25,955 nucleotides of DNA from a virus (lineage: Duplodnaviria > Heunggongvirae > Uroviricota > Caudoviricetes). Within the stretch, counting starts at the first letter, position 1. Each line of letters begins with the position of its first letter. The translations under genes and the position numbers were made by a program. The DNA is taken from positions 1-25,955 of IMG/VR virus record IMGVR_UViG_2737471869_000024, one strand, 5' to 3'. The notes under the pieces were generated by a model. The model made no database searches, was not told the origin of the DNA, and saw nothing but the letters and a program-made list of their open reading frames with translations. Below are positions 4,713-24,411 of this stretch, piece after piece.

Positions 4713-4780
4713 GTTGGTTTTTCTCCACGAATTTACCGACAACCGAAGCCCTGACTGTTCCAGCAGTTGGGGCTTCAACT

Positions 4781-21673: not shown

Positions 21674-22146
21674 ACCTCAATCTCTCTGACCGTTCCGCCA
21701 GCTTCTTTGAATTTTGCAATCAGGTTGTCAGCCTTATGCTCGAACTGACCATAACCAGCGCCCGGCAGTGAAGCCCAGATATTGCTGCAACGGTCGATTG
21801 CCTGACGAATATCACCGCGATCAATCATCGGTAAAGCGCCACGCTCTTTAATCTGCTGCAATGCCACAGCGTCCTGGCTTTTCGGAGAGAAATCTTTCAG
21901 GCCAAGCTGCTTACGGTAGGCATCCCACCAACGGGAAAGAAGCTGGTAACGTCCGGCTGCTGTTGATTTGAGTTTGGGGTTTAGCATGACAAGTTTGCGA
22001 GGGTGATCGGAGTAATCAGTGAATAGCTCTCCGCCTACAATGACGTCATAACCATGATTTCTGGTTTTCTGTCGTCCGTTATCAGTTCCCTCTGACCACG
22101 CCAGCATATCGAGGAACGCCTTACGTTGATTATTGATTTCCACCAT
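21670..22146 (-). CDS. R: Endolysin R (lytic transglycosylase)
   Basis: 158 aa, [39 protein letters not shown]... essentially lambda R. Confidence 0.95.
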
Positions 22147-22453
22147 CTTCTACTCCGGCTTTTTTAGCAGCGAAGCGTTTGATAAGCGAACCAATCGAGT
22201 CAGTACCGATGTAGCCGATAAACACGCTCGTTATATAAGCGAGATTGCTACTTAGTCCGGCGAAGTCGAGAAGGTCACGAATGAACCAGGCGATAATGGC
22301 GCACATCGTTGCGTCGATTACTGTTTTTGTAAACGCACCGCCATTATATCTGCCGCGAAGGTACGCCATTGCAAACGCAAGGATTGCCCCGATGCCTTGT
22401 TCCTTTGCCGCGAGAATGGCGGCTAACAGGTCATGTTTTTCTGGCATCTTCAT
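22130..22453 (-). CDS. S: Holin/antiholin S (dual start Met1-Lys2-Met3)
   Basis: 107 aa, [62 protein letters not shown]... essentially lambda S. The upstream CCCC-TTATT-GGGG hairpin is in the position of the lambda sdi structure. Confidence 0.95.
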
Positions 22454-22695
22454 GTCTTACCCCCAATAAGGGGATTTGCTCTATTTAATTAGGAATAAGG
22501 TCGATTACTGATAGAACAAATCCAGGCTACTGTGTTTAGTAATCAGATTTGTTCGTGACCGATATGCACGGGCAAAACGGCAGGAGGTTGTTAGCGCAAC
22601 CTCTTGCCGCCCGCTTTCACGAAAGTCATGTGTAGAAGGCTGCAGCATAACTATCACTGATGAGTTCAGGATAGCCAGTGGCTACGGCTCAGTTA

Positions 22696-22771
22696 TGGTG
22701 CTGGTTAACGGACTTGAACCGCTACCCATTCGCTTACAAGGCGACTGCTCTACCATTGGAGCTAAACCAGC
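22696..22771 (-). tRNA. tRNA-Thr(UGU)-like gene
   Basis: Manual fold of the 76-nt minus-strand sequence GCTGGTTTAGCTCCAATGGTAGAGCAGTCGCCTTGTAAGCGAATGGGTAGCGGTTCAAGTCCGTTAACCAGCACCA. Perfect 7-bp acceptor stem, 4-bp D stem with GG in the loop, anticodon loop CTTGTAA, T-loop TTCAAGT and an encoded CCA. Confidence 0.55.
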
Positions 22772-22776
22772 ATATT

Positions 22777-22851
22777 TGGCGGGACAGCGTGGACTCGAAC
22801 CACGATAAGAAGGTTAACAGCCTTCCGTAATGACCTTTATACGACTGACCC
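22777..22851 (-). tRNA. tRNA-Asn(GUU)-like gene (imperfect)
   Basis: 75-nt minus-strand sequence with T-arm CGTGG-TTCGAGT-CCACG, anticodon arm GAAGG-CTGTTAA-CCTTC and a CCA end, but one mismatch in the acceptor stem and a weak D stem. Could be a degenerate tRNA. Confidence 0.4.
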
Positions 22852-22854
22852 AAA

Positions 22855-22914
22855 TAAAAAATCCCGAAACCGTTATGCAGGCTCTAACTATTACCTGCGA
22901 ACTGTTTCGGGATT
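22855..22914 (-). terminator. tR'-like terminator ending the short late leader (6S) RNA
   Basis: Long minus-strand hairpin (CCCGAAAC ... CAGG ... CCTG ... GTTTCGGG) followed by ATTTTTTAT, about 190 nt downstream of the PR'-like promoter. Confidence 0.65.
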
Positions 22915-23047
22915 GCATTTTACAGACCTCTCAGCCTGCGATGGTTGGAGTTCCAGACGATACGTCGAAGTGACCAACTAGGCGGAATCGGTAGTAAGCG
23001 CCGCCTCTTTTCATCTCACTACCACAACGAGCGAATTAACCCATCGT
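22915..23047 (-). ncRNA. Body of the lambda 6S-like late leader transcript (PR' start to tR')
   Basis: Inferred from the promoter at 23055..23083 and the terminator at 22855..22914. The full transcript would span about 23047 to 22855 (~190 nt), close to the 194-nt lambda 6S RNA. Confidence 0.5.
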
Positions 23048-23054
23048 TGAGTCA

Positions 23055-23083
23055 AATTTACCCAACTTTATTCAAAAAGTCAA
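23055..23083 (-). promoter_or_regulatory. PR'-like late promoter with overlapping Q-utilisation (qut) region
   Basis: Minus strand has TTGACT, a 17-bp spacer and TAAATT, located 43 bp downstream of the Q stop. Arrangement matches lambda PR'. Confidence 0.65.
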
Positions 23084-23125
23084 TATCATGCCGTTAATAT
23101 GTTGCCATCCGTGGCAATCATGCTG

Positions 23126-23749
23126 CTAACGTGTGACCGCATTCAAAATGTTGTCTGCAATTGACTCTTCCTTGTGGCATTGCACCACCAGAGCGTCATA
23201 CAGCGGCTTAACAGTGCGTGACCAGGTGGGTTGGGTAAGGTTTGGGATTAGCATCGTTACAGCGCGATATGCGGCGCTTGCTGGCATCCTGGAATAGCCG
23301 ACACCTTTGCATCTTCCGCATTCTTTCTCAACAACTCTCCCCCACTGCTCTGTTTTTGCTATATCAACCGCACGGCCTGTACCGTGACAATCTCTGCATC
23401 TTGCGCCCGGCGTCGCGGCACTACGGCAATAATCCGCATAAGCGAATGTTGCGAGCACTTGCAGTACCTTTGCCTTAGTATTTCCTTCAAGCTTTGCAAC
23501 GCCACGGTATTTCCCCGATACCTTGTGTGCAAATTGCATCAGATAGTTGATAGCCTTTTGTTTGTCATTCTGGCTGAGTTCGTGCTTACCACAGAATGCA
23601 GCCATTCCGAATCCGGCTTGTGATTGCGCCATCCCCATAGCAGCCATCACATCAGTACCGGAAAGAGAGTCAGAAGCCGTGGCCCGTGGTGAGTCGCTCA
23701 TCATCGGGCTTTTTGGTGAATGAAATTTGGCTACGCTTTCGAGTCTCAT
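23126..23749 (-). CDS. Q: Late-gene antiterminator Q
   Basis: 207 aa, [60 protein letters not shown]..., matching lambda Q as I recall it, including the Cys-rich zinc-binding region (CRDCHGTGR...CGRCKG). Confidence 0.95.
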
Positions 23750-24411
23750 GCGCCTTCTCCCTGTACCTGAATCAATGTGAGGTTTCCGCAGAACACTGCG
23801 CCGGTATCGATATACATCTGGTTGGCAAATTTGAGTGGTTTCACTGCTGGCGTATGACCAAAGATGAACGTGTCCGCGCCTTTAATTTCTTTCACGATCC
23901 CGTCTTGTGAGTTGCTGATTCGTTCGCGGTTCCAGATTACCTGCTGATGATCAACTGGCTTTCCGAACTCGTATTCATCACAGGGATAATCGGCGTGGCA
24001 GATGACGTATTTTTTATCTTTGCTCACCAGTTCGATGATTAACGGAAGTTCATCTGCTTTATGGGCAAGAGCTTTAGCCAGAATTTCTTTGTCGTAATCG
24101 AGATTAAAGAACCAGCCACCGCCATTAAGCAGCCAGTGATTGACGTTTCCGCGCTCTGATAAGCCATCAATCATCATTTGCTCATGGTTTCCACGTACAG
24201 CTCTGAACTAGGGGAATGTGATTAATTCCAGGCATTCAACGTTCTCTGCACCACGATCAACCAAATCGCCAACCGAGATAAGCAGGTCTTTTTTGGTGTC
24301 GAATCCTATCGTCTCCAGTTTTTTCATCAGGTTCGTGTAGCATCCGTGCAGATCGCCAACTACCCAAATATTTCGGTATTTGCTGCCATCAATTTTTTCG
24401 TAATAGCGCAT
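23746..24411 (-). pseudogene. Ser/Thr protein phosphatase (lambda PP / ORF221 type) interrupted by an in-frame amber codon
   Basis: Two adjacent same-frame ORFs: an N-terminal fragment [25 protein letters not shown]...ECLELITFP ending in TAG (24208..24210), and a C-terminal fragment resuming ...[24 protein letters not shown]... In lambda the interrupting codon is Trp (TGG). Together the span is exactly 221 codons plus stop. Confidence 0.85.

Follow-up and report, generated by a model that had tools for sequence, protein, structure and literature searches.

Tandem tRNA genes, one for Asn(GUU) and one for Thr(UGU), located downstream of the late antiterminator gene Q have been described in phage SfI, and Sf6, ST64T, PS3 and phage 21 were named in the same study as carriers of one or both tRNAs (PMC3636060). 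Cassette tRNAs have also been described in phage L (PMC8022706), epsilon34 (PMC2629481) and Kapi1 (PMC8787464), and the route of tRNA expression was stated to be unknown in the phage L paper (PMC8022706). Several genome papers document the pair, which is already known as a mobile cassette of lambdoid and P22-like phages.

The threonine member has been studied experimentally in connection with the Old protein of phage P2, a Toprim nuclease and the effector of the classic P2-lambda interference, which blocks lambda (Govande 2025; PMC12445682). Old does so, and kills, by excising the anticodon stem of host tRNA-Thr(UGU), cutting at a paired CNG motif; phage tRNA-Thr(UGU) genes rescued cells from Old, four library tRNA-Thr hits raising viability at least 1000-fold (PMC12445682). 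The tRNA-Thr of phage 21 (tRNA-Thr21) 'also protected'; it is partly Old-resistant, which it owes to C28U/G42A along with a shorter anticodon stem, and it suppresses Old toxicity, with the tRNA expressed from a plasmid and the rescue partial in these experiments (PMC12445682). Several further tRNAs were also cleaved by Old, including host tRNA-Asn(GUU) as a slower substrate (PMC12445682).

A second nuclease acting on the same host tRNAs is AriB of the PARIS system, which cleaves tRNA-Lys(UUU) as well as tRNA-Thr(UGU) and, less strongly, tRNA-Asn(GUU) at the site U36-A-A-U39-C40/A41, in which U39 is critical (Belukhina et al. 2025; PMC12409363). PARIS restricts lambda (PMC9122126), and the T5 tRNA-Lys is needed to bypass the B185 PARIS system (PMC12409363).

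The locus described here is part of a 25,955-nt stretch of phage DNA, the whole of which was analysed and is referred to as the window. Overall the window is a P22-like mosaic with best matches to phiv205-1, Kapi1 and CUS-3, and a P22-type sar RNA is located at positions 4713-4780 (Rfam).

The tRNA pair and its late-region setting

Exactly two tRNA genes were returned by ARAGORN from the whole window, both on the minus strand. The features of the late region around them are listed in their order along the region.

23126 to 23749, minus strand: gene Q, a lambda-type late antiterminator of 207 aa (open reading frame; matching records of lambda, mEp506 and Kapi1 annotate it as antitermination protein Q)
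23055 to 23083, minus strand: late promoter pR' (TTGACT, 17-nt spacer, TAAATT; consensus scan; near-identical to lambda in alignment)
22852 to 22914, minus strand: intrinsic terminator tR', where the 6S RNA ends (long hairpin and U-run)
22777 to 22851, minus strand: tRNA-Asn, anticodon GUU (75 nt; CCA encoded; G73 discriminator; ARAGORN and Rfam)
22772 to 22776, minus strand: spacer between tRNA-Asn and tRNA-Thr (5 nt, AAUAU, read from the sequence)
22696 to 22771, minus strand: tRNA-Thr, anticodon UGU (76 nt; CCA encoded; ARAGORN and Rfam)
22454 to 22695, minus strand: late leader from tRNA-Thr to the S start codon (242 nt; conserved, highly structured)
22130 to 22453, minus strand: holin gene S (107 aa; first of the late genes past the tRNAs; open reading frame; holin in the matching records)

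Genes R and then Rz come after S. All of the local features are on the minus strand, with tRNA-Asn transcribed first and tRNA-Thr second. The original prediction had placed the pair right after tR' and before the holin, and the coordinates agree, as tRNA-Asn begins at 22851 and S at 22453.

Searches with the Rfam model RF00005 (Infernal) gave 61.5 bits for tRNA-Thr (E = 2.8e-11 over the whole window) and 55.3 bits for tRNA-Asn (E = 1.4e-9 over the whole window). These scores are about twice the gathering score of 29 and far above chance expectation. The initial reading of the interval as Asn-GUU and Thr-UGU tRNA genes was thus confirmed by ARAGORN and Rfam at the positions it gave, both genes encode CCA ends as it had claimed, and the outcome that would have spoken against it, predictors returning nothing or only sub-threshold hits, did not occur.

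Canonical bacterial tRNA architecture was found in both genes, with a 7-bp acceptor stem, GG in the D arm, GTTCRA in the T arm, and anticodon arms consisting of a 5-bp stem and a 7-nt loop with U33 and a purine at position 37. The exceptions are three mismatches, identified in the Rfam alignment as G27.A43 in tRNA-Thr, which shortens the anticodon stem, and U4.U69 and U13.U22 in tRNA-Asn. The imperfection noted earlier in the asparagine gene corresponds to its two mismatched pairs; the threonine gene has one. The minimum-free-energy structure of tRNA-Thr was a full cloverleaf; tRNA-Asn also folded as a cloverleaf, but its D arm was weak, and its thermodynamic z-score was a modest -1.7. The identity elements of AsnRS are GUU and G73, and those of ThrRS are G1-C72, C2-G71, G35 and U36. 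All of these nucleotides were read in the respective tRNA genes, including the G1-C72 and C2-G71 pairs of tRNA-Thr, the anticodon stem of which has no CNG motif.

Measured between the same anchors, the Q-to-S distance was 901 nt in the window and 905 nt in lambda, so that the spacing is about that of lambda as originally noted. Identity to lambda was 98.6% over one flank of the tRNA block (277 nt) and 95.3% over the other (296 nt), and the 158-nt tRNA block between them stood opposite an unrelated 162-nt lambda segment, with 37% identity. The terminator tR' was the same as in lambda through the U-run, where lambda homology ended; it broke just past the U-run (GGGATTTTTTAT) and restarted at AACTGAGCCGTAGCC. 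The statement that lambda has no tRNAs also held for this locus: no tRNA was called by ARAGORN in the Q-S region of lambda, for which Rfam, run permissively (E up to 10), gave no tRNA and a single snoRNA match, spurious and located elsewhere in the locus. A decayed tRNA pair was considered as the origin of the lambda segment and ruled out by the ARAGORN and Rfam negatives together with the 37% identity. Because the flanks match lambda while the middle blocks are unrelated and the lambda block is devoid of a tRNA signal, the alignment presents a clean cassette swap, in which the matching length is coincidental. Of the original interpretation, the gene identity and position stand and the argument drawn from equal spacing does not: the interval, with its block of 37% identity between conserved flanks, could not be aligned over its full length with tRNA-free lambda, and the suggestion of tRNA-derived sequence rather than functional genes is contradicted by the unrelated lambda block, by compensatory changes and by the phage 21 experiments.

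A consensus scan of positions 22300-23300 on either strand identified pR' as the sole sigma-70-like site, with no other promoter-like site upstream of the tRNAs and no simple terminator-like site. The terminator scan had a loop limit of 8 nt and missed the long tR' hairpin, which was confirmed by folding (hairpin and U-run, -28 kcal/mol, z -5.5). The 242-nt leader downstream of the pair was 95% identical to lambda, is also common to BTP1, and folded at -84.7 kcal/mol (z -5.7) with a stem-loop at the S ribosome-binding site. Covariation was sought for the leader hairpin at approximately 22566-22600 in 57 variants, and the changes at its variable positions were not compensatory.

Relatives of the Asn-Thr cassette

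Comparison with the phage 21 genome record (OL657228.1, positions 39591-39746) gave 100% identity for both tRNA genes, and the spacers differ by one base (AACAU in phage 21, AAUAU in the window). The order and position are also shared, with Asn then Thr directly past the late terminator and before the holin. The surrounding modules differ, phage 21 having a 21-type Q, pR', Q-binding element and short terminator and the S21 pinholin, and the window a lambda-type Q, pR', 6S RNA/tR' and lambda S. Both genes were likewise 100% identical to those of BTP1, in which the Q, promoter, terminator and holin are different and the downstream leader of 240 nt is the same as in lambda and the window. The tRNA-Asn gene was also 100% identical to that of ST64T.

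Identity across the whole Q-tRNA-S region was 97.8-98.9% in mEp506, HK446, phiv205-1 and Kapi1, and two tRNAs are annotated in the mEp506 and Kapi1 records. The tRNA pair itself was 99-100% identical in HK446, mEp506, Kapi1, SfI, BTP1, SPN9CC and CurroJimenez and about 97.7% identical in Oslo, and an Asn-Thr pair is annotated in Sf6 too. In Sf6, SfI, BTP1, SPN9CC, Kapi1, HK446 and mEp506 the pair is likewise located between Q and the holin. The window pair belongs to this lambdoid and P22-like late-leader cassette by sequence identity and by position, and as there is no difference of substance from carriers of the HK446, mEp506, Kapi1 and SfI type, the window is one more carrier.

Of 5,426 complete E. 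coli genomes, 353 (approximately 6.5%) carried the pair, with annotation by PGAP, and a pattern scan found the cassette in at least 120 IMG/VR contigs. Among the 120 IMG/VR matches listed were 93 Asn-Thr pairs, seven Asn-Gly(UCC) pairs, six lone Asn genes and roughly twelve longer arrays, for example Asn-Phe-Thr-Arg(UCU). The Asn gene was directly behind the terminator U-run in nearly all of the 120 contigs listed, and at least three late-terminator types were represented, with approximately 80 of the phage 21/BTP1 type, approximately 15 of the lambda tR' type as found here, and several others. The sequence was retained at 99-100% identity in phages of Escherichia, Shigella and Salmonella whose Q and terminator modules differ. 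Variation in carriage was also seen: P22 had no tRNA genes by ARAGORN, and the second tRNA was degenerate in ST64T and phage L and was not called by ARAGORN in either. An odd UAA anticodon is reported by tRNAscan for this second tRNA of phage L (PMC8022706).

Three other phage tRNA arrays were compared with the window. In the Stx phage 933W the array is likewise in the late leader, past pR'/qut and terminators and ahead of late genes; it differs in content (ileZ-argN-argO, for Ile, Arg and Arg), is unrelated in sequence, is followed by the stx genes rather than a holin, and has a putative dedicated tRNA promoter, pT, annotated. Phage T5 has tRNA-Lys, tRNA-Thr and tRNA-Asn variants by which PARIS is neutralised. 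The Thr(UGU) anticodon and the Asn(GUU) anticodon recur in T5, and both sets are without U39 of the AriB motif, the threonine anticodon stem-loop being GUUGC/CUUGUAA/GCAUC in T5 and GUCGC/CUUGUAA/GCGAA in the window. Unlike the window, T5 is virulent and has 23 tRNAs, including an essential resistant tRNA-Lys, and the tRNA bodies differ. P1 and P7 have tandem tRNA-Asn and tRNA-Thr genes with the same anticodons, order and a short spacer. Their Thr genes were 78% identical to that of the window, whereas the Asn genes were 56% identical and the context is not a Q-controlled late leader. A related Thr gene was found in approximately 730 plasmid records, most of them non-mobilizable, and these non-mobilizable plasmids are probably P1-like phage-plasmids.

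Function and role of the two tRNAs

Seventeen distinct variants of tRNA-Thr had double-sided changes at 11 of 21 pairs, with 95% of cells paired compared with 24-48% when partners were slid, and the covariation score was reached by none of 500 shuffles. For tRNA-Asn, 14 distinct variants were available, gathered with a search pattern that restricted variation in the D and anticodon arms; pairs 6:67, 7:66 and 28:42 co-varied, and the score was again reached by none of 500 shuffles. The mismatches U4.U69 and U13.U22 were themselves conserved among the tRNA-Asn variants. A recent capture from the host was considered and ruled out, as tRNA-Asn was 58.7% identical to asnT and tRNA-Thr 65.8% identical to thrU of E. 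coli. Phage 21 tRNA-Thr21 expressed from a plasmid restores ACA decoding in vivo (PMC12445682). The compensatory base changes and the published work on this sequence-identical tRNA-Thr argue that the window genes are functional.

Transcription of BTP1 has been profiled by RNA-seq, in which the two tRNAs were set apart from the other prophage genes of high expression, five in number; according to the paper the lytic operon 'begins directly after' them (PMC7067206). Such an operon start agrees with the tRNAs being cut out of the late transcript. The BTP1 antisense RNA STnc6030 was considered as a neighbour of the tRNAs and set aside, being placed in that paper antisense to tailspike and ejection genes and unrelated to the pair (PMC7067206).

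The anticodon of tRNA-Thr matches that of host tRNA-Thr(UGU), the prime target of Old and a prime target of AriB, and the anticodon of tRNA-Asn matches a secondary target of both nucleases, tRNA-Asn(GUU). The anticodon stems differ from those of the host at the nuclease determinants. In tRNA-Thr the stem is GUCGC/GCGAA compared with ACUGA/UCAGU in the host, and U28, A42, the G27.A43 mismatch and the lack of CNG on either strand are the features described for tRNA-Thr21. In tRNA-Asn the stem is GAAGG/CCUUC, with no CNG, compared with the host stem GCGGA/UCCGU, which has a paired CNG. At the AriB positions, G39 and G41 in tRNA-Thr and C39 and U41 in tRNA-Asn occur in place of U39 and A41, and tRNA-Asn is without both the Old and the AriB cleavage motifs. 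Judged from the gene sequences, both tRNAs appear to have lost the anticodon-stem cleavage determinants. The complete set of tRNA-Lys, tRNA-Thr and tRNA-Asn for bypass of B185 PARIS was not found, with no tRNA-Lys detected in the window by ARAGORN or among the 120 related cassettes listed, and the cassette alone cannot defeat B185 PARIS because tRNA-Lys(UUU) is absent.

The best explanation, and in our judgement a likely one, is that the locus holds two functional phage tRNA genes forming a late-leader Asn(GUU)-Thr(UGU) cassette that would serve chiefly to provide nuclease-resistant replacement tRNAs. The cassette is read chiefly as a replacement supply because the identical tRNA-Thr21 partly resists Old and rescues cells. 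As to expression, pR' fires constitutively, and RNA polymerase from it would halt at tR' unless modified by Q. With Q, the polymerase would pass tR' and the tRNAs would make up the 5' portion of the late transcript, from which host RNase P, RNase E and 3' exonucleases would excise both. The tRNA supply would then coincide with the synthesis of lysis and virion proteins, and excision would part the 6S leader from the lysis mRNA. The decoding of ACA, a codon three times more frequent than in E. coli genes, would be a secondary benefit. It is plausible from the layout and the absence of another promoter-like site that the tRNAs are transcribed only upon Q antitermination, and leak through tR' could give basal tRNA expression.

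This arrangement has a timing problem, in that the tRNAs are downstream of tR' yet gene Q itself holds four ACA codons. Because of these codons, Q synthesis would be impaired if the host tRNA had already been destroyed, and protection from the native position may depend on tR' leak or on the host tRNA being depleted only in part.

The tRNA-Asn probably has the same replacement role, its host counterpart being targeted by Old and AriB and the phage copy lacking both motifs. The tRNA-Asn of P7 keeps a host-like perfect AriB site (UAAUCA), an observation against such a role.

A role in codon supply without any anti-defence function, in which the tRNAs would only boost ACA and AAC/AAU decoding during the late burst, is the strongest of the alternatives, although we consider it unlikely as a full account; codon supply is the explanation put forward in the SfI (PMC3636060) and phage L (PMC8022706) papers. 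In the window genes ACA occurred at 17.2 per 1000 codons and made up 30% of threonine codons, compared with 5.4 per 1000 and 10% in 42 E. coli K-12 genes, an approximately 3-fold enrichment (Fisher p about 1e-12), and asparagine codons were enriched 1.3-fold over the same 42 genes. The SfI figures for ACA, 17.3 compared with 7.1, are in line with those of the window (PMC3636060), and thrU is the sole UGU tRNA in MG1655 (PMC12445682). Arg(UCU) and Gly(UCC) tRNAs, readers of classic rare codons, occur in other forms of the cassette. Yet P22, which has no tRNAs, was nearly as biased in its late genes (ACA 12.9 and Asn 52.9 per 1000), and because of this, codon bias cannot explain which phages carry the cassette and fails as a predictor of carriage. 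Lambda does without the cassette in a Q-S region that is otherwise 95-99% identical. E. coli has four asn tRNA genes, and with these tRNA-Asn is unlikely to be limiting. The SfI authors also found no bias that would account for tRNA-Asn (PMC3636060). Codon supply gives no account of anticodon stems that differ at the exact nuclease determinants, nor of the Old resistance of tRNA-Thr21.

Less probable still, and in our view a remote prospect, is expression independent of Q, from a promoter of the tRNAs' own or by tR' leak in the lysogen, with the tRNAs serving host or prophage maintenance. In its favour, pR' is constitutive and terminators are never fully efficient, the equivalent region of 933W has the putative tRNA promoter mentioned above, and the question was left open by the phage L authors (PMC8022706). 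High read counts for both tRNAs were also recorded in BTP1 lysogen cultures, but the high spontaneous induction of BTP1 can account for them (PMC7067206). Against it, the coding strand of 22300-23300 holds no promoter-like site other than pR', tRNA-Asn begins 1 nt past the U-run and leaves no room for a promoter, and in at least 120 contigs the cassette abuts the late terminator of whatever type.

The weakest reading, that of decayed tRNA-derived DNA or attachment-site leftovers carried passively, could draw on the two mismatched pairs and modest z-score of tRNA-Asn and on the decay that does occur at this site in ST64T and phage L, but it is scarcely credible and largely refuted by the Rfam scores, the intact CCA and identity nucleotides, the compensatory substitutions that keep the stems in both tRNAs, the conservation of the Asn mismatches across contexts, the 99-100% identity behind differing Q and terminator modules in phages of three host genera, a lambda counterpart that is unrelated rather than a decayed tRNA, and the ACA decoding restored in vivo by the sequence-identical phage 21 tRNA-Thr (PMC12445682).

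Significance for lambda-like phages

Published work already covers the cassette and its position as well as the threonine member's protective role, and the current understanding is unchanged by this locus. For annotation, the 156 bases are two tRNA genes and not a lambda-like non-coding leader. With replacement supply as the preferred reading, the locus would be a further natural case in which a temperate phage brings its own substitutes for the host tRNAs that anti-phage nucleases destroy. The phage 21 tRNA pair, the threonine member of which has been studied experimentally, circulates unchanged behind lambda-type late control signals, and lambda compared with HK446 or mEp506 offers a natural comparison for the benefit of the cassette against P2 Old or PARIS.

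It is possible rather than probable that the pair forms a coherent counter-defence cassette, in which the asparagine member would also be a resistant replacement for host tRNA-Asn(GUU) and not a passenger. If so, the alleles with and without tRNAs of a Q-S region that is 95-99% identical (the window, HK446 and mEp506 on one side and lambda on the other) would constitute a natural near-isogenic polymorphism, and this polymorphism would set the sensitivity of lambda-like phages to P2 interference and to the related Toprim tRNases of P2 and P4 elements.

The tRNA slot and the late leader

The position held in the window by tRNA-Asn(GUU) together with tRNA-Thr(UGU), between the tR' terminator and the holin gene S, was occupied by other sequence in several relatives and was followed in the window by a late leader that was analyzed by sequence comparison and folding.

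L001 ~748-909 (lambda ~44782-44943): lambda segment in the tRNA slot, 162 nt
22454-22695, minus strand: late leader from tRNA-Thr to the S start codon, 242 nt

The lambda segment gave no tRNA or Rfam signal, and its sole overlap was with the terminal part of orf-64, a hypothetical gene. IME10 and E212 carried inserts of different lengths in the same slot. The late leader was approximately 95% identical between lambda and the window and its predicted fold (-84.7 kcal/mol, z of -5.7) was far more stable than that of shuffled sequence. In approximately 17 of the 74 distinct leader variants from IMG/VR contigs, among the matches listed, only the initial ~60 nt, which form a stem-loop, were kept with the cassette and the sequence diverged thereafter. 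Compensatory changes were not found in the terminator-like hairpin at ~22566-22600 across 57 variants. Other than for its stem-loop at the ribosome-binding site of S, the late leader is not known to have an assigned function. The 242-nt leader was also common to the window and the Salmonella phage BTP1, although Q, the late antiterminator, and the holin of BTP1 differ.

A clear antisense signal across both tRNAs of the related phage Kapi1 has been described from RNA-seq of lysogens (PMC12922286). This signal could be a strand artefact of abundant tRNA or it could be a genuine antisense RNA, and a scan of the equivalent stretch of the window found no promoter-like site on the antisense strand.

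The NinI homologue and the immunity region

Two further features of the window were located outside the late leader.

24208-24210, minus strand: in-frame stop in the homologue of lambda NinI, between the ORFs 24486-24208 and 24177-23746
4713-4780, plus strand: sar antisense RNA of P22 (Rfam RF00262)

This one in-frame stop codon split the window's homologue of NinI, the serine/threonine phosphatase of lambda, at a position where lambda NinI has Trp. A pseudogene is therefore the probable state of this gene, or else its product is made as two fragments. The match to RF00262 was full-length and scored 90.6 bits, the gathering score being 43. It identifies an immI (ant/arc/mnt) region of the P22 type, combined in this phage with a late control region of the lambda type.

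Cassette tRNAs in other phages

Altered or recurring forms of the cassette tRNAs were identified in the following records.

ST64T (L004) 786-870: degenerate second cassette tRNA, same in phage L
L007 625-778: Asn-then-Thr tandem of phage P7, plus ~730 plasmid records with a related Thr gene
L126 extracted segment 481-556: chimeric tRNA-Thr in one relative, an IMG/VR contig

The second cassette tRNA of ST64T and phage L had approximately 74% identity to the Thr gene and was missing part of the D/anticodon region. ARAGORN made no call for it, and the phage L paper describes it as an odd tRNA-Leu(UAA) by tRNAscan (PMC8022706). This second tRNA may be a copy that is in decay or has taken on another use.

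The same tandem order, Asn then Thr, occurred in P1/P7-type phage-plasmids. Compared with the window, the Thr gene of P7 was 78% identical while the Asn gene was only 56% identical, and the P7 tRNA-Asn contained the host-like site UAAUCA of the PARIS nuclease AriB. That this particular pair recurs in temperate phages that are not related to each other is consistent with selection by nucleases directed at both tRNAs.

The chimeric tRNA-Thr was of the phage type over its first ~25 nt and identical to E. coli thrU, the host tRNA-Thr(UGU) gene, over the remainder including the anticodon stem. It was located in the late leader, followed by tRNA-Gly(UCC), and looks like a product of gene conversion in which the host gene was the donor. 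Its thrU-type anticodon stem would bring back the CNG motif that is cleaved by the P2 nuclease Old.
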